This document shows, in pieces, positions 21,509-33,687 of a DNA stretch of 64,000 nt. The DNA is taken from assembly GCF_013122565.1 (NCBI RefSeq), contig NZ_CP053258.1, one strand, 5' to 3'. This DNA is from Escherichia coli. GTDB taxonomy: Bacteria > Pseudomonadota > Gammaproteobacteria > Enterobacterales > Enterobacteriaceae. The translations under genes and the position numbers were made by a program. Below the pieces are notes generated by a model. The model searched no databases. It worked only from the letters and a program-made list of their open reading frames with translations, and had not been told where the DNA came from. Each line of letters starts with the position of its first letter. Position 1 is the first letter of the stretch.

Positions 21509-22435
21509 ATGGAACTTCGCCAGTTACGTTATTTTGTCCGTATTGTGGAAACCGGCAGTATGGGCAGCGCGGCGCTTGATCTCGACATCGGTGTCTCAGC
21601 GCTCAGTCAACAGATGACAAGGCTGGAAAATGAACTCGCCATTCGTCTGTTGCAACGAACCTCGCGTGGCGTAACGCCAACTAACTCGGGTCTGGCCTTT
21701 TACTCACAGGCACAGCTGGCGTTGCGTCATGCTGATGATGCCATTCTTGCTGCGCGCGATGCACGTCTGTCAGGACACGTCAGCGTCGGTATGGCCCCCA
21801 GTACAGCCTCCGTCCTGGGGGTGCCGTTTATTCATGCCATGCGGGCACATTACGCCGACGTTCGCCTGCATGTGGTGGAAAGCCTGTCAGGTAATCTGGA
21901 ACGGATGATCAACACCCGTCAGATTGATCTGGCCGTTGTTTTTCGGAAAGAAAAGCACCTGCGCTGGAGCGCCAGGCCAGTTCTCGAAGAGCAGCTTTTT
22001 CTGATTGGCACACATGATCTGCTGACGGATATTCCGGATGACACCATAACCCCTGCTCAACTGACGAATATTCCCCTGATCATGCCAAGCTCAGGCCACG
22101 GCTTGCGCGGCCTACTGGAGGCTATTTGTCAGGAACACGGGCTGAAGGTTGATATCGCCACGGAAATTGATGGCCTGACGTTACTGATGCGCGCCGTTGG
22201 CAGCGGACTCGGTGCAACATTACAACCCGGAGCAGCCATTTCGCATCTTGAGGGTGAAGCATTAAGAGTGATCGGCATCCATAATCCCATACTCAGCCGC
22301 CCCAATTTTCTGGTCAGCCTATCGGACGATGAACTCCCGCCCGCCGCTCTTGCAGCCCGCGTGATACTTACAAAAGTCATGCGTAAACTTGTTGAAATCG
22401 GCCATTGGCCGGGCGCAACCATTTACGCTCCCTAA
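21509..22435 (+). CDS. tcuR: LysR-family regulator, TcuR-like
   Basis: 308-aa ORF with a LysR HTH (MELRQLRYFVRIVETGSMGSAALDL...) immediately upstream of tcuABC. Confidence 0.8.
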   Translation: MELRQLRYFVRIVETGSMGSAALDLDIGVSALSQQMTRLENELAIRLLQRTSRGVTPTNSGLAFYSQAQLALRHADDAILAARDARLSGHVSVGMAPSTASVLGVPFIHAMRAHYADVRLHVVESLSGNLERMINTRQIDLAVVFRKEKHLRWSARPVLEEQLFLIGTHDLLTDIPDDTITPAQLTNIPLIMPSSGHGLRGLLEAICQEHGLKVDIATEIDGLTLLMRAVGSGLGATLQPGAAISHLEGEALRVIGIHNPILSRPNFLVSLSDDELPPAALAARVILTKVMRKLVEIGHWPGATIYAP

Positions 22436-22532
22436 ACCCCCCTTTAGTTATTCGTTATAGCGCTTACACAACACACGAACATACACTTCATTTACAAATT
22501 TAACAGATGGTTAAAAGGTAGTGGAGTAGACG

Positions 22533-23936
22533 ATGGTTGATGTACTGGTGATTGGCGGTGGTAATGCCGCGCTATGCGCCGCCTTAACCGCTCGTGAGGC
22601 AGGAGCTTCCGTGCTGCTGTTAGAGGCTGCGCCTAGGGAATGGCGCGGCGGGAATTCCCAACACACGCGCAATTTACGCTGTATGCACGATGCACCACAG
22701 GATGTGCTGGTCGAGAGTTATCCCGAAGAGGAATTCTGGCAGGATCTCTGGCGTGTCACCGAAGGCAATACCAATGAAGCGTTGGCGCGCTTGGTGATTC
22801 GAACCTCTTCCCAGTGTCGTGACTGGATGCGTCAGCATGGGGTTAATTTTCAGCCTCCGCTTTCCGGCGCGCTGCATGTGGCGCGCACCAATGCCTTCTT
22901 CATGGGCGGTGGTAAAGCCCTCGTGAACGCCTATTACCGCAGTGCAGAAAAGCTGGGGGTACAGATTCGCTACAGCACGCCGGTACAGGCGCTTGAATTG
23001 CACAACGGCAAATTCGTCGCAGCCCTGGCAGGTCACGAACGCATTGAGGCGAAAGCCTGCGTACTCGCCGCCGGCGGGTTTGAATCCAACCGCGAATGGC
23101 TACGCGACGCCTGGGGAGAGAACGCACGTGGCGAATGGCCAGCCGATAATTTCCTCATTCGCGGCACCCGCTTTAATCAGGGCGTCTTGCTCAAATTTAT
23201 GATCAATGCCGGGGCAGACATTATCGGTGATCCGTCTCAGTCCCATTGTGTGGCGATTGATGCACGGGCACCGTTGTACGACGGCGGCATTTGTACCCGC
23301 GTGGATTGTGTCTCACTGGGTGTGGTAGTCAACCGGGATGCAGAACGCTTTTACGATGAAGGGGAAGATTTTTGGCCGAAACGCTATGCCATCTGGGGAC
23401 GTCTGGTTGCCCACCAACCGGGGCAGATTGGCTACTCCATTATCGACAGCAAAGCGATCGGCCACTTTATGCCGCCAGTTTTCCCCGGCGCACAGGCCAA
23501 TACGCTAAGAGATCTGGCCCGCCAGTTGGGGCTGGATCCCGAACACTTTACCCACACCGTGGAACACTTCAATCAGGCCTGTCAGCTGGGTCAGTTTGAT
23601 CACACGAAGCTGGACAACTGCGCGACGCAGGGCCTGATTCCACCGAAAACCCACTGGGCGCGGCCTATTGATACGCCCCCCTACTACGGTTATGCCCTGC
23701 GACCAGGAATCACCTTTACCTATCTCGGGCTGAAAGTAAATGAACACGCTGCGGTTCATTTCGCAGGCACCCCCAGCCCTAACCTGTTCGTTGCCGGTGA
23801 AATGATGGCAGGCAATGTACTGGGTAAGGGCTATACCGCCGGGGTCGGGATGTCCATTGGCACCACGTTTGGTCGCATCGCTGGTAAAGAAGCCGCTCAG
23901 GCAGCACGCAAGGAGACGCATCATGAAGCAGCTTGA
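22533..23936 (+). CDS. tcuA: Tricarballylate dehydrogenase TcuA (FAD-dependent)
   Basis: 467-aa ORF with an N-terminal FAD-binding motif ([17 protein letters not shown]); followed by tcuB and tcuC. Confidence 0.85.
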
Positions 23937-25062
23937 AAAGTTGATTATCGAGGCCAAAATTCTCACCGAACCAGAGGCTGAAGTCGAGCGGGTGATGCAT
24001 GTGTGTAACGCATGTCGCTATTGCGAAGGATTTTGCGCCGTGTTCCCGGCAATGACTCAACGACTGGAATTTGGCAAAGCCGACATTAACTATCTGGCAA
24101 ATCTGTGCCATAACTGCGGCGCTTGCCTACACGCCTGCCAGTATGCTCCCCCCCATGAGTTTGGGATCAACGTGCCGAAAGCAATGGCAGAGGTACGTCT
24201 GGAAACTTATCAACAGTACGCGCAACCGGCGGTCTTCGGGGCGCTGTATCGCCGGGCTGGCGTCACCGTGACGCTGGCACTGGTCTTAAGTATGTTCCTC
24301 TTTTTACTCCTGGCGATGGGGCTGAAGGGATCGCTGCTCCACCCACCGCTGGCCGGTGATTTCTACCAAATCTTCCCGCACAACCTGCTGGCCTGGATGT
24401 TTGGATCGGTATTCATTCTGGCTATTGGTTTACTGATGGTAGGGGTGATCCGCTTCTGGCGCGAGATTTCTCCCGTCGGGCCGCGCCCAGCGGAAATTGC
24501 CGAAGCGTCGAGCAACGCGCTAACGCTAAAATATCTTGACGGCGGACATGGCAAAGGGTGCAACGAAGCGGACGATGCTTTCACATTGATGCGTCGTCGT
24601 TTCCACCATTTCACCTTCTACGGCTTTATGCTCTGTTTCGCCGCGACCATGGTGGCGACGGGTTACCACTACTTTGCTAGTTGGGAAGCCCCCTACCCAT
24701 TCTTCAGTGTGCCGGTCATGCTTGGCACGTTAGGAGGAGTCGGTTTAATCGTAGGCCCGGCAGGCCTGCTGTGGTTAAACCTTAAGCGCTCGCCACTGCA
24801 TGGCGATGCGCGACAGAAACCGATGGATCGGGGATTTATTTTACTACTGCTCCTGACCAGCCTCACCGGTTTAGGTTTGCTGGTGGGAAGAGATACCTCA
24901 TGGATGGGGATCCTGCTTGCCATCCATCTTGGCGTGGTCATGGCGCTTTTTTTAACAATTCCGTACGGAAAATTTGCCCACGGATTTTACCGCTGCGCGT
25001 CTTTACTCAAATGGGCGATCGAGAAGCGACGTGGAAAACAGGCGGGGGTCGCAAGCGACTGA
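23923..25062 (+). CDS. tcuB: Tricarballylate utilisation protein TcuB (membrane Fe-S protein)
   Basis: 379 aa from ATG 23923 ([12 protein letters not shown]...), which overlaps the tcuA stop. Two Cys clusters ([22 protein letters not shown]) plus hydrophobic segments. Confidence 0.82.
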
Positions 25063-25116
25063 CCCGCACACTCTTACCTCTATACATAATTATGATAAGG
25101 CAATGGAGCAACCTCA

Positions 25117-26412
25117 ATGACTCAACAACCATCGCGTACCGGCACGTTCGGCGCAATACTCCGTGTTACCAGCGGTAATTTTCTCGAACAGTTCGATTTT
25201 TTCCTGTTTGGTTTTTACGCTACTTATATCGCAAAGACGTTTTTTCCTGCCGAAAGTGAGTTTGCCGCATTAATGCTTACTTTTGCCGTTTTTGGCTCCG
25301 GCTTTTTAATGCGCCCTATCGGGGCCGTGGTATTGGGTGCATATATCGACAGAATTGGGCGACGGAAAGGGCTGATGGTTACCCTGGCGATTATGGGCTG
25401 CGGCACGATGCTCATCGCCCTCGTTCCGGGTTATCAGACTATCGGCCTGCTGGCCCCTGTACTGGTCCTGGTGGGGCGTCTGCTACAGGGATTTTCTGCT
25501 GGAGTCGAACTGGGCGGCGTCTCTGTTTATCTTTCTGAGATCGCCACACCAGGCAATAAAGGCTTTTATACCAGTTGGCAATCGGCCAGCCAGCAGGTGG
25601 CGATTGTGGTCGCCGCGCTGATCGGGTACGGTCTGAATGCCACGCTGGGACACGATGAAATCTCCGAATGGGGTTGGCGAATACCGTTCTTCATTGGCTG
25701 CATGATTATTCCGCTGATTTTTGTTCTGCGACGTTCGCTTCAGGAAACTGAAACCTTTTTACAGCGTAAACACCGTCCGGACACCCGGGAAATTTTTACC
25801 ACCATTGCTAAAAACTGGCGTATTATCACTGCGGGAACCCTGCTGGTGGCGATGACGACCACGACATTTTATTTTATTACCGTCTATACCCCCACTTACG
25901 GGAGAACGGTGTTGAACCTGAGCGCACGTGATAGTCTGATCGTCACTATGCTGGTAGGGATTTCTAACTTTATATGGCTGCCGATTGGCGGCGCGATCTC
26001 TGACCGGATTGGGCGTCTCCCGGTGCTAATGGGCATCACCTTACTCGCCATCGTCACCACCTGGCCGGTGATGCACTGGCTTACCGCTGCACCTGACGTC
26101 ACCCGCATGACACTGGTGCTGCTCTGGTTCTCGTTCTTTTTTGGGATGTATAACGGTGCAATGGTAGCAGCCCTGACAGAAGTGATGCCGGTTTATGTCC
26201 GAACCGTGGGTTTTTCGCTGGCCTTTAGTCTCGCCACGGCGATTTTCGGCGGCCTGACACCAGCCATCTCCACTGCATTGGTCCAGTTGACAGGCGATAA
26301 AAGTTCTCCTGGATGGTGGCTAATGTGCGCTGCGCTGTGCGGGCTCGCCGCGACGACAATACTGTTTGCTCGTCTCAGTAGTGGTTATCAGACAGTAAAA
26401 AATAAGCTCTGA
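25117..26412 (+). CDS. tcuC: Tricarballylate/citrate MFS transporter TcuC
   Basis: 431-aa MFS-type ORF downstream of tcuAB. Confidence 0.82.
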
Positions 26413-26418
26413 AACGCA

Positions 26419-26450
26419 AGCAGGCAGAGATATATGTCTGCCTGCTTTCT
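26419..26450 (+). terminator. Terminator-like hairpin after tcuC
   Basis: AGCAGGCAGA / TCTGCCTGCT 10-bp stem, 8-nt loop, followed by TTCT. Confidence 0.5.
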
Positions 26451-26639
26451 CCAGTGCGCCGTAAACCGTGGGCAGCGTGGCACGGGAGTTACGTCACCGG
26501 GCTCTATGCCAACAGTTCAGTGAGTTCGCCGGCGCATCGATGGCTGGTTATGCCAGCAATGTTCAGAGGGAAGAATATTCGTGTGATCATAGCTTGCTTA
26601 TTCCTTGCCTGGGTTAAATTTTCAGACGGCTCAATCCAT

Positions 26640-26892
26640 AAAACCGGTGACTGGGATTAACGTAAGTACGCCCTCTTTCCATCAACACTTCAGGCAGCTT
26701 GCGGGAATGAGTCCACTCCGGTATCAGAAATGACTATGCCTCAGAAGACAGGCGACTAACGATGTCACCACAGCAGCCTATACTGTCGGTTACGAAAGCT
26801 TATCCCATTTCAGTCGGGAATATTCGCGGATGTTTGGAGAGTCACCTAAGAGAGATATTGCCAGATTAAGAAAGTCTGTCGATCAGCTTTAA
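26640..26892 (+). pseudogene. yneL: Decayed AraC-family regulator remnant (yneL-like)
   Basis: Translation gives ...[77 protein letters not shown]. Both AraC-type HTH signatures are present, but an in-frame TGA interrupts them and the inter-helix spacing is shortened. No intact N-terminal domain. Confidence 0.55.
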
Positions 26893-27325
26893 TAAACCCT
26901 GCATTTATCTGGTTAGAGCAATTTGGCGTTAGTTTCAGCAAGCAAACATTAACCATAGCTAATGATTTTTAGCTATATAAACCATTAGTAACTCTTGACC
27001 TTTCCTGACACTTCCCTTGTTCGCAATAATATTCTGTTTAGTCGCTGTTTATAAATAACATGCATAATGAAATCGTCATGTTATTTAGCGACATAAAATG
27101 TCTTTGCAAATACTCTCTTCAATAAGTGCAGCAATAAACTTGTTGTGGATAGGTGTCCTTGTGATTTAAAGATATTATCGTTCTTCGTGAAATGTAATAA
27201 CCCTGGAAACTATATTCTCAGGGCAACAGCCAATCAAGAATGATTCTTGTTTTATAAGCAATAACAGAATGACTTAATTGTTAACTCTCTTTATTCAGCT
27301 ACTTAAATGTAAATTTTGGAGAATT

Positions 27326-27889
27326 ATGAAACTCAAACATGTCGGTATGATTGTCGTTTCTGTGTTGGCGATGTCGTCTGCTGCGGTAAGTGCAGCCGAG
27401 GGTGATGAATCAGTAACGACCACTGTTAATGGCGGTGTTATTCATTTTAAAGGTGAAGTGGTAAATGCCGCTTGTGCGATTGATTCAGAATCAATGAACC
27501 AAACGGTTGAACTGGGGCAGGTCCGTTCTTCTCGCCTGGCTAAAGCGGGTGACCTCAGCTCCGCCGTTGGCTTCAATATCAAGCTGAATGATTGTGATAC
27601 CAATGTTTCCAGTAATGCAGCTGTTGCATTCCTGGGTACTACTGTCACCAGTAATGACGATACGTTAGCGCTGCAGAGTTCAGCGGCAGGCTCTGCCCAA
27701 AATGTCGGTATCCAAATTTTGGACCGTACGGGGGAGGTATTAATACTTGATGGTGCCACTTTTAGCGCTAAAACTGACTTGATTGATGGCACGAATATAC
27801 TGCCGTTCCAGGCTCGTTATATTGCTCTCGGGCAGTCAGTAGCTGGTACTGCAAACGCAGATGCGACCTTCAAAGTTCAATATCTATAA
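27326..27889 (+). CDS. fmlA: F9 (Fml) fimbrial major subunit, FimA-like
   Basis: 187 aa from ATG 27326 with RBS GGAG at 27318-27321; signal peptide and pilin-like C-terminus. First gene of a chaperone-usher operon. Confidence 0.8.
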
Positions 27890-27930
27890 TTCTATCTTAA
27901 GGTGGCTATACGTCATCTGAAAATGAAACA

Positions 27931-27959
27931 GGGTGTGTGTGGCATGGCTACGCACACCC
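27931..27959 (+). other. Imperfect hairpin (GGGTGTG...CACACCC) in the intergenic region after the major-subunit gene
   Basis: Read directly. Its position resembles the intra-operon attenuating stem-loops of fimbrial operons; that role is inference. Confidence 0.3.
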
Positions 27960-28240
27960 GAGCAATTCACCAATGTGAATCTCATTATTAATGAGGAGTG
28001 GTTTGTATTTGGAGCGGTATGAAAAAATCACATAATATCTAAACGATTAATAAACAACAGTAGTTGAACTTACTGTTATTTAAAATATTTACTTAGTAGC
28101 AAGGTTTTCCTATTAAAAGAGAACCAACATTTGTTACAAACGCATTAAGTCTGGAAACCCGGCGACTCGCAATGTATTAGCAACATTTACCGATTGTCTG
28201 ATGTAACGGTTTCCCCGCTTATCCTCTTAACACATGGAGA

Positions 28241-28960
28241 ATGCATCAGATGCAAACTACGCGTACCCCCTACTCTGTTTCCGTTATGGCGACAGTGTTA
28301 CTTTTATTGCTCTTTGCTTGCCATAGCACCGTTGCCAACGCAGCTGTCGCACTTGGTGCGACGCGGGTAATTTATCCGGCAAACCAGAAACAGGTTTTAT
28401 TGCCTGTCACGAATAATGATCCTGCCAGTGTCTATCTCATTCAGTCATGGATAGAAAATGCGGGTGACCAAAAAGACACCCAGTTTGTCATTACCCCACC
28501 ACTTTTTTCCATGCAAGGTAAAAAAGAGAATACGCTGCGGATAATCAACGCCACTAATCATCAGTTACCAGACGACCGTGAAAGCCTGTTCTGGGTTAAT
28601 GTCAAAGCTATTCCTGCTATGGAAAAAGACCAGAAGAATGAGAATACATTACAGCTGGCAATTATTAGCCGCATAAAAATGTTTTATCGCCCCACGAACC
28701 TGGCAATGGCACCTGAAGAAGCGCCTGCAATGCTTCGGTTTCGCCGCAGCGGTAGCAAACTCACTCTTATAAATCCAACGCCCTACTTCATTACCGTAAC
28801 AAATATGAAAGCAGGAAATAGCAATCTCCCAAACACCATGGTGCCGCCAAAAGGTGAAGTATCGGTGGATATCCCGCATGCTGCAACCGGGGATATCAGT
28901 TTTCAAACGATCAATGATTACGGTGCATTAACTCCGCGTATTAAGGCAACCATGCAGTAA
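28241..28960 (+). CDS. Fimbrial periplasmic chaperone (FimC/PapD-like)
   Basis: 239-aa ORF with signal peptide and chaperone-like sequence (…RVIYPANQKQVLLPVTNNDPASVYLIQSWIEN...). Confidence 0.85.
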   Translation: MHQMQTTRTPYSVSVMATVLLLLLFACHSTVANAAVALGATRVIYPANQKQVLLPVTNNDPASVYLIQSWIENAGDQKDTQFVITPPLFSMQGKKENTLRIINATNHQLPDDRESLFWVNVKAIPAMEKDQKNENTLQLAIISRIKMFYRPTNLAMAPEEAPAMLRFRRSGSKLTLINPTPYFITVTNMKAGNSNLPNTMVPPKGEVSVDIPHAATGDISFQTINDYGALTPRIKATMQ

Positions 28961-29001
28961 GCCAGTAACCTAATTAATAATAAACTCAATCGGAATTAAT
29001 A

Positions 29002-31653
29002 ATGACAGCCTTTCGTGCCGCATTTAAGGCATATCGTATGCATCAGGTGTTACTACTGCCTCGCTTTGCACGGCTTACCATTGCCCTTGGCTTAGCAACT
29101 GCGGTATTTCCCGTTGACGCAGAGTATTATTTTAATCCACGGTTTTTAAGCAATGATCTTGCTGAATCTGTCGATTTATCCGCCTTTACTAAGGGACGCG
29201 AGGCACCACCTGGTACATATCGGGTCGACATTTATTTGAACGACGAATTTATGACCAGTCGGGATATTACTTTTATTACAGATGATAATAACGCAGCTCT
29301 CATCCCATGCCTGAGTACAGACCTTCTTGTCAGTCTTGGTATAAAAAAATCAGCGTTATTAGACAATAAGGGACATTCGGCAGAAAAACATGTGCCGGAC
29401 AACAGCGCATGCACACCACTTCAGGATCGTTTGGCTGACGCATCATCTGAGTTTGATGTTGGTCAGCAACATCTGTCACTCTCCGTTCCGCAAATTTATG
29501 TTGGCAGAATGGCTCGCGGCTATGTTTCTCCTGATCTGTGGGAAGAAGGAATAAATGCTGGGCTACTAAACTATAGTTTTAATGGTAATTCTATTAACAA
29601 TCGTAGTAACCATAATGCAGGAAAATCCAACTATGCATATTTGAATTTACAGAGTGGCATTAACATTGGTAGTTGGCGACTGCGCGATAACTCAACGTGG
29701 AGTTATAACAGTGGGAGTAGCAATTCATCTGACAGCAATAAATGGCAGCATATCAATACGTCGGCTGAACGTGACATTATTCCCTTACGCTCACGGTTAA
29801 CGGTGGGTGATAGTTATACCGATGGCGATATTTTTGATAGTGTGAACTTTCGTGGCCTCAAAATAAATTCAACAGAAGCAATGTTGCCCGATAGCCAACA
29901 TGGTTTCGCTCCGGTGATTCATGGTATTGCCCGTGGCACCGCACAAGTGAGTGTAAAACAGAACGGATACGATGTTTATCAGACTACTGTCCCACCCGGC
30001 CCTTTTACTATTGATGATATCAACTCTGCGGCCAATGGTGGTGATCTGCAAGTAACCATAAAAGAGGCAGACGGCAGTATTCAGACATTATATGTTCCTT
30101 ATTCGTCTGTTCCGGTTCTCCAACGTGCTGGATATACGCGTTATGCGCTTGCCATGGGGGAATATCGTAGTGGAAATGACCTGCAAAGCTCCCCCAAGTT
30201 CATACAAGGTAGCTTGATGCATGGACTGGAAGGAAACTGGACACCTTATGGCGGAATGCAAATTGCAGAAGATTATCAGGCCTTAAACCTTGGTATTGGT
30301 AAAGATTTAGGACTTTTTGGTGCCTTTTCTTTCGATATCACGCAGGCCAATACGACACTTGCAGATGGCACCCGTCACAGCGGGCAATCGGTTAAATCCG
30401 TCTACAGCAAATCCTTCTACCAGACGGGAACCAATATCCAGGTCGCAGGATATCGCTATTCTACGCAAGGTTTTTATAACTTATCCGACAGTGCCTACAG
30501 TCGAATGAGTGGTTACACCGTCAAGCCTCCTACCGGAGACAGCAATGAGCAGACACAATTTATTGATTATTTTAATCTGTTCTACAGTAAGCGTGGTCAG
30601 GAACAAATAAGCATCTCTCAGCAGCTTGGAAATTACGGTACGACATTTTTCAGTGCCAGTCGCCAAAGTTACTGGAACACGTCACGCAGCGACCAGCAAA
30701 TATCATTTGGGTTAAATGTGCCGTTTGGTGATATTACAACCTCGCTGAATTACAGCTATTCCAATAATATATGGCAAAACGATCGAGATCATTTACTCGC
30801 TTTTACGCTTAATATTCCCTTCAGTCATTGGATGCGTACAGACAGTCAGTCGGCATTTCGTAATTCAAACGCCAGTTACAGTATGTCAAACGATTTGAAA
30901 GGCGGCATGACCAATCTATCGGGGGTTTATGGCACTCTGCTGCCGGATAATAACCTGAATTATAGCGTTCAGGTCGGTAACACCCACGGGGGTAATACAT
31001 CGTCTGGCACCAGTGGTTACAGTTCTCTTAATTATCGTGGAGCTTACGGTAATACTAATGTCGGTTACAGTCGGAGTGGCGAAAGCAGCCAGATTTATTA
31101 TGGAATGAGTGGTGGCATTATTGCTCATGCTGATGGCATCACCTTTGGACAGCCGCTGGGCGACACAATGGTTCTGGTTAAGGCTCCTGGCGCTGATAAT
31201 GTCAAAATAGAGAACCAGACCGGAATTCATACTGACTGGCGTGGCTATGCCATATTACCATTTGCGACAGAATATAGAGAAAATCGTGTCGCTCTTAACG
31301 CGAATTCCCTGGCAGATAATGTTGAACTGGATGAAACCGTGGTCACTGTCATCCCAACTCACGGTGCTATTGCCAGAGCAACATTTAATGCACAAATCGG
31401 CGGGAAAGTATTAATGACGTTGAAGTACGGTAATAAGAGCGTTCCATTCGGTGCAATTGTCACTCACGGAGAGAATAAAAACGGCAGCATTGTCGCGGAA
31501 AACGGTCAGGTTTATCTGACTGGACTTCCACAGTCAGGGAAATTACAGGTTTCATGGGGCAAAGATAAAAACTCAAACTGTATTGTCGAGTACAAGCTTC
31601 CTGAAGTTTCTCCTGGTACCTTACTGAACCAGCAGACAGCAATCTGTCGCTAA
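29002..31653 (+). CDS. ydeT: Fimbrial outer-membrane usher (FimD-like), full length
   Basis: 883-aa ORF. In K-12, ydeT is only a C-terminal fragment; here it is intact. Confidence 0.85.
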   Translation: MTAFRAAFKAYRMHQVLLLPRFARLTIALGLATAVFPVDAEYYFNPRFLSNDLAESVDLSAFTKGREAPPGTYRVDIYLNDEFMTSRDITFITDDNNAALIPCLSTDLLVSLGIKKSALLDNKGHSAEKHVPDNSACTPLQDRLADASSEFDVGQQHLSLSVPQIYVGRMARGYVSPDLWEEGINAGLLNYSFNGNSINNRSNHNAGKSNYAYLNLQSGINIGSWRLRDNSTWSYNSGSSNSSDSNKWQHINTSAERDIIPLRSRLTVGDSYTDGDIFDSVNFRGLKINSTEAMLPDSQHGFAPVIHGIARGTAQVSVKQNGYDVYQTTVPPGPFTIDDINSAANGGDLQVTIKEADGSIQTLYVPYSSVPVLQRAGYTRYALAMGEYRSGNDLQSSPKFIQGSLMHGLEGNWTPYGGMQIAEDYQALNLGIGKDLGLFGAFSFDITQANTTLADGTRHSGQSVKSVYSKSFYQTGTNIQVAGYRYSTQGFYNLSDSAYSRMSGYTVKPPTGDSNEQTQFIDYFNLFYSKRGQEQISISQQLGNYGTTFFSASRQSYWNTSRSDQQISFGLNVPFGDITTSLNYSYSNNIWQNDRDHLLAFTLNIPFSHWMRTDSQSAFRNSNASYSMSNDLKGGMTNLSGVYGTLLPDNNLNYSVQVGNTHGGNTSSGTSGYSSLNYRGAYGNTNVGYSRSGESSQIYYGMSGGIIAHADGITFGQPLGDTMVLVKAPGADNVKIENQTGIHTDWRGYAILPFATEYRENRVALNANSLADNVELDETVVTVIPTHGAIARATFNAQIGGKVLMTLKYGNKSVPFGAIVTHGENKNGSIVAENGQVYLTGLPQSGKLQVSWGKDKNSNCIVEYKLPEVSPGTLLNQQTAICR

Positions 31654-31666
31654 GGAACAATAGATT

Positions 31667-32197
31667 ATGAAATACAATAACATTATTTTCCTCGGTTTAT
31701 GTCTGGGGTTAACCACCTATTCTGCTTTATCCGCAGATAGCGTTATTAAAATTAGCGGGCGCGTCCTCGATTATGGCTGCACAGTCTCATCGGATTCGCT
31801 TAATTTTACCGTAGATCTCCAAAAAAACAGTGCCAGACAATTTCCAACGACCGGTAGCACAAGTCCAGCCGTCCCTTTTCAGATTACGTTAAGTGAATGC
31901 AGCAAAGGGACAACGGGAGTTCGGGTTGCATTTAACGGTATTGAGGATGCAGAAAATAATACTCTGTTGAAACTGGATGAAGGGAGCAATACGGCCTCCG
32001 GTTTGGGTATAGAAATACTGGACGGAAATATGCGTCCGGTGAAATTGAATGACCTTCATGCCGGGATGCAGTGGATCCCACTGGTACCAGAACAGAACAA
32101 TGTTTTGCCTTACTCCGCTCGTTTGAAGTCAACTCAGAAGTCCGTCAATCCGGGACTGGTGAGCGCTTCGGCAACATTTACCCTTGAATTTCAATGA
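31667..32197 (+). CDS. ydeS: Fimbrial minor subunit YdeS
   Basis: 176-aa pilin-like ORF with signal peptide. Confidence 0.85.
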   Translation: MKYNNIIFLGLCLGLTTYSALSADSVIKISGRVLDYGCTVSSDSLNFTVDLQKNSARQFPTTGSTSPAVPFQITLSECSKGTTGVRVAFNGIEDAENNTLLKLDEGSNTASGLGIEILDGNMRPVKLNDLHAGMQWIPLVPEQNNVLPYSARLKSTQKSVNPGLVSASATFTLEFQ

Positions 32198-32209
32198 TCA
32201 GAGTCAGAT

Positions 32210-32713
32210 ATGAAAAGACTTCACAAGAGGTTCCTGTTAGCTACGTTTTGCGCGTTATTCACAGCAACTCTCCAGGCCGCCGATGTCACTATCACTGTTA
32301 ATGGTCGGGTAGTCGCTAAACCCTGCACTATTCAAACCAAAGAAGCTAACGTTAATCTCGGGGATCTTTATACACGCAATCTGCAACAACCTGGTTCTGC
32401 ATCAGGCTGGCACAATATTACTTTGTCATTAACCGATTGTCCGGTTGAAACAAGTGCAGTGACGGCAATCGTGACAGGTTCAACTGACAATACGGGTTAT
32501 TACAAAAATGAAGGTACTGCCGAAAATATTCAGATAGAGCTAAGGGATGACCAGGATGCGACGTTAAAAAATGGCGATAGCAAAACGGTTATTGTTGATG
32601 AGATCACTCGTAATGCACAGTTTCCACTTAAGGCAAGAGCTATCACGGTGAATGGAAACGCAAGCCAGGGAACGATCGAGGCGCTAATCAATGTGATCTA
32701 CACTTGGCAATAA
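32210..32713 (+). CDS. ydeR: Fimbrial minor subunit YdeR
   Basis: 167-aa pilin-like ORF with signal peptide. Confidence 0.85.
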   Translation: MKRLHKRFLLATFCALFTATLQAADVTITVNGRVVAKPCTIQTKEANVNLGDLYTRNLQQPGSASGWHNITLSLTDCPVETSAVTAIVTGSTDNTGYYKNEGTAENIQIELRDDQDATLKNGDSKTVIVDEITRNAQFPLKARAITVNGNASQGTIEALINVIYTWQ

Positions 32714-32772
32714 CGTCGATTCGATTTTCTTAGCCTCCTTTTTAAATCAATTTTTTAACCTTAGGATATATC

Positions 32773-33687
32773 ATGGGTAAAACAATAAGTATGAAGGTTC
32801 TGTTCGGTATTTATCTTCTATTAATAGCAGGCAAAGTTTTTGCCTTCAGTTGTAATGTCGATGGCGGGTCAAGTATTGGAGCAGGTACAACCTCTGTTTA
32901 TGTTAATCTCGACCCTGTAATACAACCGGGCCAGAATCTGGTTGTAGACTTGTCTCAGCATATAAGTTGCTGGAATGATTACGGCGGCTGGTACGACACT
33001 GATCATATAAACCTGGTACAAGGCTCAGCTTTCGCAGGCTCCCTACAGTCATATAAAGGATCGCTGTACTGGAATAATGTGACCTACCCCTTCCCGTTGA
33101 CAACAAATACCAACGTATTGGATATTGGTGATAAGACACCGATGCCATTACCGTTAAAACTCTATATTACTCCAGTCGGGGCGGCCGGCGGAGTTGTCAT
33201 AAACGCGGGGGAAGTTATTGCCCGTATTCATATGTATAAAATTGCAACATTAGGAAGCGGAAATCCGCGTAATTTTACGTGGAATATTATTTCAAATAAC
33301 AGTGTTGTTATGCCAACAGGCGGCTGCACCGTTGATAGTCGTAATGTCAACGTGAATCTCCCGGACTTTCCTGGAAGCGCAGAAATACCCCTTGGCGTAT
33401 ATTGCTCAAGTGAACAAAAGCTCTCATTTTATCTTTCGGGTGCTACCACTGACAGTGCCAGACAAGTGTTTGCTAACACAGCACCAGATGCAACAAAAGC
33501 AGCGGGAGTGGGTGTCTCTCTGATGCGTAATGGAAAAATACTGGCTACGGGAGAAAATGTCTCCCTGGGGACAGTAAATAAAAGCAAAGTACCTCTGGGT
33601 TTAAGCGCAACCTATGGACAAACAGGAAACAAAGTTTCAGCCGGAACCGTCCAGTCAGTCATTGGTGTCACTTTTATCTATGAATAA
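32773..33687 (+). CDS. ydeQ: Fimbrial tip adhesin YdeQ (FimH/FmlH-like two-domain adhesin)
   Basis: 304-aa ORF, last gene of the operon; adhesin-like length and signal peptide. Confidence 0.85.

Follow-up and report, generated by a model that had tools for sequence, protein, structure and literature searches.

Tricarballylate is a plant- and rumen-derived acid whose utilisation has been worked out in Salmonella. What does a complete set of the corresponding genes represent on a chromosome of Escherichia coli, a working pathway or a remnant, and from where did it arrive? This question is raised by a stretch of 64,000 nucleotides (nt) of an E. coli chromosome (contig NZ_CP053258.1 of assembly GCF_013122565.1, hereafter the window), in which a first-pass annotation made from the sequence had placed a tcuRABC tricarballylate-utilisation operon at 21509-26412. 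Our analysis indicates that these genes very likely form a functional tricarballylate-utilisation cassette, composed of a regulator gene, tcuR, followed by a tcuABC operon.

All four genes lie on the plus strand in the order tcuR-tcuA-tcuB-tcuC, each as an open reading frame (ORF) where it had been placed. Gene tcuR (21509-22435) encodes a LysR-type regulator of 308 amino acids (aa), tcuA (22533-23936) a tricarballylate dehydrogenase dependent on flavin adenine dinucleotide (FAD; 467 aa), tcuB (23923-25062) its membrane-anchored electron-transfer partner with 4Fe-4S clusters and haem (379 aa), and tcuC (25117-26412) a tricarballylate(/citrate):proton symporter of the major facilitator superfamily (MFS; 431 aa). 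The gene map was derived from a six-frame ORF list, in which the mechanical tcuB ORF begins at 23815. The start of tcuB was set to the ATG at 23923, the position used by homologues and by RefSeq, which is preceded at 7 nt by a Shine-Dalgarno sequence, AAGGAG, read from the sequence on the plus strand within the 3' end of tcuA (23910-23915). The stop codon of tcuA occupies 23934-23936, and the last 14 nt of tcuA (23923-23936) are also the first 14 nt of tcuB, the ATG starting 11 nt 5' of the first base of that stop codon; the distance of 14 nt first proposed between tcuB start and tcuA stop is therefore confirmed as the length of the overlap. By analogy with Salmonella, this overlap probably couples the translation of both genes and, together with the strong internal Shine-Dalgarno sequence, would allow the two partners to be made together.

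The likeness to the characterised Salmonella proteins implied by the first identification is borne out, with identities of 84% for TcuR, 91% for TcuA, 88% for TcuB and 92% for TcuC and the same gene order. Comparison with NCBIfam models gave scores well above the respective cut-offs for TcuA (786 bits against the equivalog NF006130, cut-off 369; 682 bits against TIGR02485, cut-off 373), TcuB (707 bits against NF011607, cut-off 524) and TcuC (727 bits against NF011656, cut-off 445), and judged on these alignments the three family matches are far beyond chance. TcuA displays an N-terminal dinucleotide-binding motif, the Rossmann motif GGGNAA. In TcuB, two CxxCxxCxxxC motifs (C28/31/34/38 and C62/65/68/72) were invariant in 84 homologues, as were C213, C238 and seven histidines, and the protein contains at least five hydrophobic segments. 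TcuB thus combines two ferredoxin-type 4Fe-4S motifs with a membrane domain carrying conserved histidines, and the corresponding cofactors are predicted. TcuR carries the Pfam domains HTH_1 and LysR_substrate.

Conservation of the four proteins was evaluated in alignments of 85 sequences for TcuA, 84 for TcuB, 24 for TcuC and 72 for TcuR. All near-invariant columns were kept (229/229, 144/144, 214/214 and 76/76, respectively), that is, zero deviations in 663 positions. Set against the common E. coli allele, the window proteins have only one private substitution, Y346F in TcuA, at a position where phenylalanine occurs in seven of the 85 aligned sequences, the window included. When the genes were compared with the alleles of E. 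coli 0-4, IncFII plasmids, plasmid pHCM1 and Salmonella, the ratio of nonsynonymous to synonymous substitutions (dN/dS) ranged from 0.03 to 0.15 in 15 of 16 gene-by-allele comparisons, the exception being tcuR against pHCM1 (0.30). Because these ratios are low, the genes are considered to be under purifying selection and not decaying. Full-length, conserved and constrained, they look functional from their sequences.

All four exact protein sequences were already present in public databases. Identical E. coli proteins are named TcuR, TcuA and TcuB by RefSeq/NCBI, and the window TcuC (WP_000193887.1) is an 'MFS transporter' at NCBI and a 'Citrate-proton symporter' in UniRef; it falls into one 90% cluster with Salmonella TcuC. 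Naming of TcuC is uneven in RefSeq: the alleles of the window, a plasmid of enterotoxigenic E. coli (ETEC) and pHCM1 are called 'MFS transporter', whereas the IncFII allele, 96.5% identical to the window protein, bears the name 'tcuC tricarballylate/proton symporter'.

Candidate regulatory signals were found at three places. A promoter-like site on the plus strand 5' of tcuR, CTGACA-16 nt-TAAAAT (21454-21481), was the best sigma-70 match of the region (10 of 12 positions), identified by consensus matching only; it is situated inside the cassette and its sequence is conserved among E. coli and plasmid copies. The 97-nt gap between tcuR and tcuA contains a block (22481-22515, plus strand) that stands out from the variable spacer around it by its conservation, which extends to Salmonella, Citrobacter, Raoultella and Pluralibacter and to every E. 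coli and plasmid copy. A scan of this block revealed a dyad, TTTAAC-N5-GTTAAA (22499-22515), and a LysR-type T-N11-A box (22501-22513), and the block is a candidate TcuR operator and tcuA promoter region. Finally, a terminator scan and an inverted-repeat search both yielded an intrinsic-terminator-like hairpin on the plus strand (26418-26452; AAGCAGGCAGAGATA/TATGTCTGCCTGCTT, then TCTCC), with 15-nt arms of 93% complementarity, starting 6 nt past the tcuC stop codon; it is conserved like the regulatory block. No Rfam family matched in a scan of 20000-28000, and a search for CRP sites gave nothing credible, its best candidate in the tcuR-tcuA spacer having 3 mismatches in the 10 specified bases.

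These signals bear on the wording of the first-pass annotation, which had described a single tcuRABC operon. Its gene content stands, but 'tcuR plus a tcuABC operon' seems to fit the window genes better, because tcuR has its own promoter-like site, a conserved block precedes tcuA and, in Salmonella, tcuR is reportedly transcribed apart from tcuABC.

If the enzyme chemistry and the inducer are as in Salmonella, TcuC would import tricarballylate together with a proton; its Salmonella counterpart also carries citrate. TcuA, a soluble FAD enzyme, would oxidise tricarballylate to cis-aconitate, which aconitase would feed into the tricarboxylic acid cycle. In the membrane, TcuB would re-oxidise the FADH2 of TcuA, passing electrons through two 4Fe-4S clusters and haem to the quinone pool, and TcuR, as a LysR-type activator, would turn on tcuABC when tricarballylate is present. 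Lewis and co-workers are said to have found in 2009 that tricarballylate is the co-inducer of TcuR and that tcu expression depends on TcuR, and in 2004 that Salmonella tcuABC enables E. coli K-12 to grow on tricarballylate, making the background a permissive one. Growth on tricarballylate, which had been expected from the presence of the genes, can be retained as a sound prediction for the strain on the strength of the Salmonella phenotype.

Four observations weigh against a functional cassette of this composition. The sigma-70 consensus scan gave no tcuA promoter in the tcuR-tcuA spacer; consensus-poor promoters are usual where transcription is activator-dependent. No TcuR-specific NCBIfam model matched the regulator, the best model being NAC, below its cut-off, and the TcuR assignment consequently rests on 84% identity and synteny. 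At the cassette's left end, the hairpin is no longer intact in the window strain, so that tcuR might also be transcribed by read-through from the upstream LacI-family gene. Lastly, the literature searched held no phenotype, transcript or enzyme data for the strain or for any E. coli carrier, and searches for E. coli tcu genes or a tricarballylate phenotype of E. coli isolates returned no dedicated study.

The window belongs to an E. coli chromosome whose flanks are 98% identical to those of K-12, from lsrR through hipA on the left (543-11790) and from the usher gene ydeT through yddA on the right (30427 onward). In between, an island of 14.9 kb (11791-26700) including the tcu genes is not in K-12; it is followed by the yneL pseudogene region (26701-27149; 90.8% identity to K-12) and by the 5' part of the F9 fimbrial operon (27150-30426), again not in K-12. 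The earlier suggestion that K-12 has no tcu genes at this position was correct: MG1655 gave no alignment to 11791-26700, and tcuAB occurs nowhere in any K-12 genome. G+C content is 51-57% across the tcu region vs 36-48% in the fimbrial DNA downstream, and the mean of the cassette (54.3%) exceeds that of the whole window (47.7%). The cassette has been acquired horizontally, and the island around it, bounded by hipA and the F9 fimbrial operon, is hypervariable.

Among 5426 complete E. coli genomes, 35 (about 0.6%) contained tcuAB, at 11 chromosomal places and on 25 plasmids. The window allele was present at 99.9-100% identity, at the same locus and with intact frames, in six genomes (wlxctx60, LHM10-1, CP52E, ET201, VE-T9 and UTME-7). 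ET201 came from a frog and others of the six from bear, pig, beef and human sources, an anecdotal host record. The whole 25-kb neighbourhood was found in no complete genome, as insertion sequence (IS) elements truncate autotransporter and fimbrial genes in the six genomes sharing the allele. Another allele, at 96%, is carried by five chromosomes, for three of which (0-4, TW10590 and P393-F10) the same locus was established, with a different left flank.

The limits of the cassette could be set by alignment. One-piece blastn alignments of the plus strand to other chromosomes and to plasmids covered 21406-26577, and identity was 95.7-95.8% for the chromosome of E. coli 0-4 and for the ETEC4079 plasmid, and 94.6% for pHCM1 over 5,172 bp; the IncFII copy aligned over 21406-26427 at 92.1%. 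Since all alignments begin at 21406 and end at 26577 (26427 for IncFII), they define a unit of 5,172 bp. Its family is mobile and is also carried by IncF and IncHI1 plasmids. In a plasmid collection, 48 records from Escherichia and Salmonella contained 80% or more of the cassette, and 98 of the 111 records with any cassette match were typed as conjugative. Carriers included IncFII plasmids, with the cassette just downstream of repA, ETEC plasmids and S. Typhi pHCM1; in the ETEC4079 plasmid, tcuA is frameshifted.

A short trace of the same family was observed on the F plasmid of EMG2 (NZ_CP099589.1), where 4001-4126 matches window positions 21406-21533. This tcu stub of about 130 bp, also present in many F-like plasmids, comprises the tcuR promoter region and the first 25-30 nt or so of tcuR in an IncFII-type allele, the sequence beyond being unrelated, and adjoins a Tn3-like element annotated as an ISEc63-family transposase and probably corresponding to Tn1000. 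F thus seems to descend from a tcu-carrying IncF plasmid.

Members of the cassette family are 92-98% identical to each other, but their identity drops to 79-81% against the Salmonella chromosome and to 80-82% against Raoultella. Given this low DNA identity, recent copying of the Salmonella locus cannot account for the E. coli cassette. Relative to the 0-4 and ETEC alleles, the window copy diverges in a mosaic fashion (97-99% identity in tcuR and most of tcuA, 93-96% in the tcuA 3' end, tcuB and tcuC), a pattern that indicates recombination within the family. The left end of the cassette (window region 21401-21425) carries, in E. coli and on plasmids, a hairpin of the form CCAACC-N4-GGTTGG with a T-run behind it, and the same hairpin is located in Salmonella a few bases past the fur stop codon; it is probably a relic of the fur terminator. 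In the window, the left arm has been replaced (GGTAAC), 6 nt past the LacI-family stop codon, which weakens the hairpin. The sequence of this end suggests that the cassette was captured from a fur-tcuRABC locus of an unsampled relative. A composite or other transposon structure, for which Tn3411, reportedly a citrate transposon, served as a model, was rejected: neither flanking ISs nor terminal repeats were found, and the repeats within 21300-26750 were short and at chance level.

The plasmid copies raise the question of which phenotype matters in E. coli. The relevant one could be aerobic citrate utilisation (Cit+). On this reading, which we regard as rather unlikely, the cassette would correspond on the chromosome to the 'citrate operon' of plasmids (citA = tcuC, citB = tcuB), with TcuC as citrate carrier in an otherwise Cit- species. 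The same 5.17-kb cassette is indeed found at 94.6-95.8% identity on pHCM1 and ETEC plasmids, and comparative papers on IncHI1 plasmids count a 'citrate operon' or citrate-utilisation genes as accessory cargo of R27- and pHCM1-type plasmids (10.1101/334409; PMC5390554). The plasmid Cit+ determinant and the window cassette are very probably the same module, because the stretch of the pHCM1 record that matches the window is annotated as tcuR, tcuA, tcuB and an MFS transporter. A role restricted to citrate would however require the transporter alone, yet tcuA, tcuB and tcuR are intact and under selection as strong as that on tcuC (dN/dS of 0.04-0.15 for tcuA and tcuB). Moreover, the two phenotypes are not exclusive and both may hold. 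Lewis and co-workers are reported to have observed in 2004 that tcuC alone let K-12 grow on citrate. The window strain may be citrate-positive upon induction of the operon.

A broader proposal, possible but put forward here tentatively, unites these elements: the cassette would give its minority lineage two traits unusual for E. coli, growth on tricarballylate and tricarballylate-inducible aerobic citrate use, and would be the chromosomal member of the pool behind the IncF/IncHI1 'citrate operon', its ultimate source being the fur-tcuRABC locus of an unsampled enterobacterium. If this is true, the plasmid-mediated Cit+ trait classically described in E. coli would be a by-product of a module for tricarballylate catabolism.

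Horizontal transfer may also leave silent or decaying relics, for instance a cassette that is silenced or lacks a working promoter or regulator. The surroundings would agree with such a fate: the island is full of IS fragments and pseudogenes (the IS3 remnant, the AraC-type pseudogene yneL, truncated autotransporter and fimbrial genes in sister genomes), few E. coli strains carry the cassette (35 of 5426 genomes), and decayed copies exist elsewhere, such as the frameshifted tcuA of ETEC4079 and the stub on F. Nevertheless, this outcome is improbable for the window copy, whose four frames are full-length with 0 of 663 near-invariant columns deviating and dN/dS values of 0.03-0.15 in 15 of 16 comparisons, whose allele is kept at 99.9-100% with intact frames in six complete genomes, and whose regulatory block and terminator are both conserved. 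That TcuA and TcuB instead serve cobalamin synthesis as a precorrin-3B synthase resembling CobZ, or act on another tricarboxylate, is most improbable: TIGR02485 once bore the label 'CobZ_N-term', and 'precorrin 3B synthase CobZ' is the name of homologues in some database entries, but NCBI now calls both matching models TcuA, the MFS symporter encoded by the partner gene is one for tricarboxylates, a different substrate is unlikely in view of the 91% identity to Salmonella TcuA, whose biochemistry has been characterised, and the CobZ reading was rejected on context, the neighbours being transporter, regulator, sugar-utilisation and fimbrial genes with no cob genes nearby.

A functional tricarballylate cassette thus being the preferred reading, its neighbours can be described. 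Besides the tcu genes, the island (11791-26700) holds an AIDA/TibA-type autotransporter with a TibC-like heptosyltransferase, an IS3 remnant and a LacI/GH5/GPH module. The adhesin module (12148-16910, minus strand) is intact and consists of two genes, the first for the TibC/Aah-like heptosyltransferase (15750-16910; 386 aa, with the Pfam domains TibC_1st and Glyco_transf_9) and the second for the autotransporter (12148-15735; 1195 aa, with ESPR, five AIDA repeats, an autochaperone and a beta-barrel). It is truncated in CP52E and ET201, the complete genomes closest to the window, where window positions 12006-12771 and 14051-17339 are missing. The LacI/GH5/GPH genes (17656-21400) constitute an oligosaccharide-utilisation module that is not in K-12: a GPH/MelB-type sugar:cation symporter (17656-19071, minus strand) and a GH5 'cellulase-family' glycoside hydrolase (19122-20207, minus strand) are divergent from the gene of a LacI-family regulator (20393-21400, plus strand), whose stop codon lies 6 nt from the junction of the tcu cassette.

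Downstream, an F9-type chaperone-usher operon is complete in the window (27326-33687), encoding a major subunit, a chaperone, an usher of 883 aa and the products of ydeS, ydeR and ydeQ. K-12 has retained the 3' part only (ydeT'-ydeQ), and in the tcu-positive sisters CP52E and ET201 the operon is broken by IS3 or IS1. The yneL region (26701-27149), an AraC-family pseudogene, showed 90.8% identity to K-12 while its flanks showed 98%. In addition, 207 bp of K-12 between the hipA flank and yneL had no counterpart in the window island, so that a simple deletion scar is absent; the yneL region looks like a hot spot of recombination or replacement, not a simple insertion or deletion.

In terms of significance, the cassette is an ordinary accessory metabolic island, rare in E. 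coli, already annotated and well characterised in Salmonella, where pathway, proteins and regulation have been worked out, and its import goes little beyond correct annotation. It does predict that the strains behind about 0.6% of complete E. coli genomes can use an accessory carbon source, tricarballylate and perhaps citrate as well, and shows a small catabolic cassette moving between chromosomes and conjugative plasmids. Such a phenotype could be relevant in herbivore guts, where tricarballylate is formed from trans-aconitate, and is relevant to diagnostic citrate tests.

One system close to that of the window is that of Salmonella. Its locus was reached through a 91%-identical protein cluster (TcuA, Salmonella enterica) and the contig encoding that protein, on which the order is pgm-seqA-...-fldA-fur-tcuR-tcuA-tcuB-tcuC-chiQ-chiP-glnS, chiQ and chiP being assigned by their Pfam domains YbfN and OprD. 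The contig contains, at gene boundaries, exact matches to the LT2 tcuC cloning primers of PMC10468695, a study from the Escalante-Semerena laboratory in which tcuA, tcuB and tcuC are described as an operon for a dehydrogenase, an FADH2:quinone oxidoreductase and a proton-symport transporter. The window genes share with tcuRABC of S. enterica LT2 (STM0692-STM0689) the same four genes, order and orientation, the protein identities given above, equal lengths for TcuR, TcuA and TcuB (308, 467 and 379 aa; TcuC has 431 aa in the window and 434 aa in LT2), the 14-nt tcuA/tcuB overlap and the intergenic TTTAAC-N5-GTTAAA block. They differ from the Salmonella chromosomal locus by a DNA identity of only about 79% and by their site: the genes directly follow fur in Salmonella, Citrobacter, Raoultella and Pluralibacter, whereas the window genes occupy the interval from hipA to the F9 fimbrial operon, along with the rest of the island. 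Gene order and overlap are common to these four genera, Entomohabitans and Serratia, and the overlap is not present in Bordetella. In Klebsiella, carriage of tcuABC led tricarballylate to be modelled as a substrate of every species except K. pneumoniae, and tricarballylate was among the substrates also growth-tested (PMC9104693). Further afield, tcuRABC is repeatedly described, in titles of published reports, as marking lineages of Campylobacter and Helicobacter that are associated with reptiles.

Comparison with the plasmid tcuRABC loci (IncHI1, ETEC, IncFII) revealed one discrete cassette with the same four genes at 92-96% identity; unlike these copies, that of the window is chromosomal, and no other allele of the family is as divergent (92-96%). 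The nearest chromosomal parallels outside the window allele are E. coli 0-4, TW10590 and P393-F10, with 95.8% identity. Their left flank consists of DEAD-box helicase and ATPase genes and not of LacI/GH5/GPH, and, unlike in the window, extra DNA with a PrlF pseudogene separates tcuC from the yneL remnant. All three nevertheless carry an intact cassette at the same hipA-F9 locus, with the yneL remnant, F9 fimbriae and ydeP as right neighbours, as in the window.

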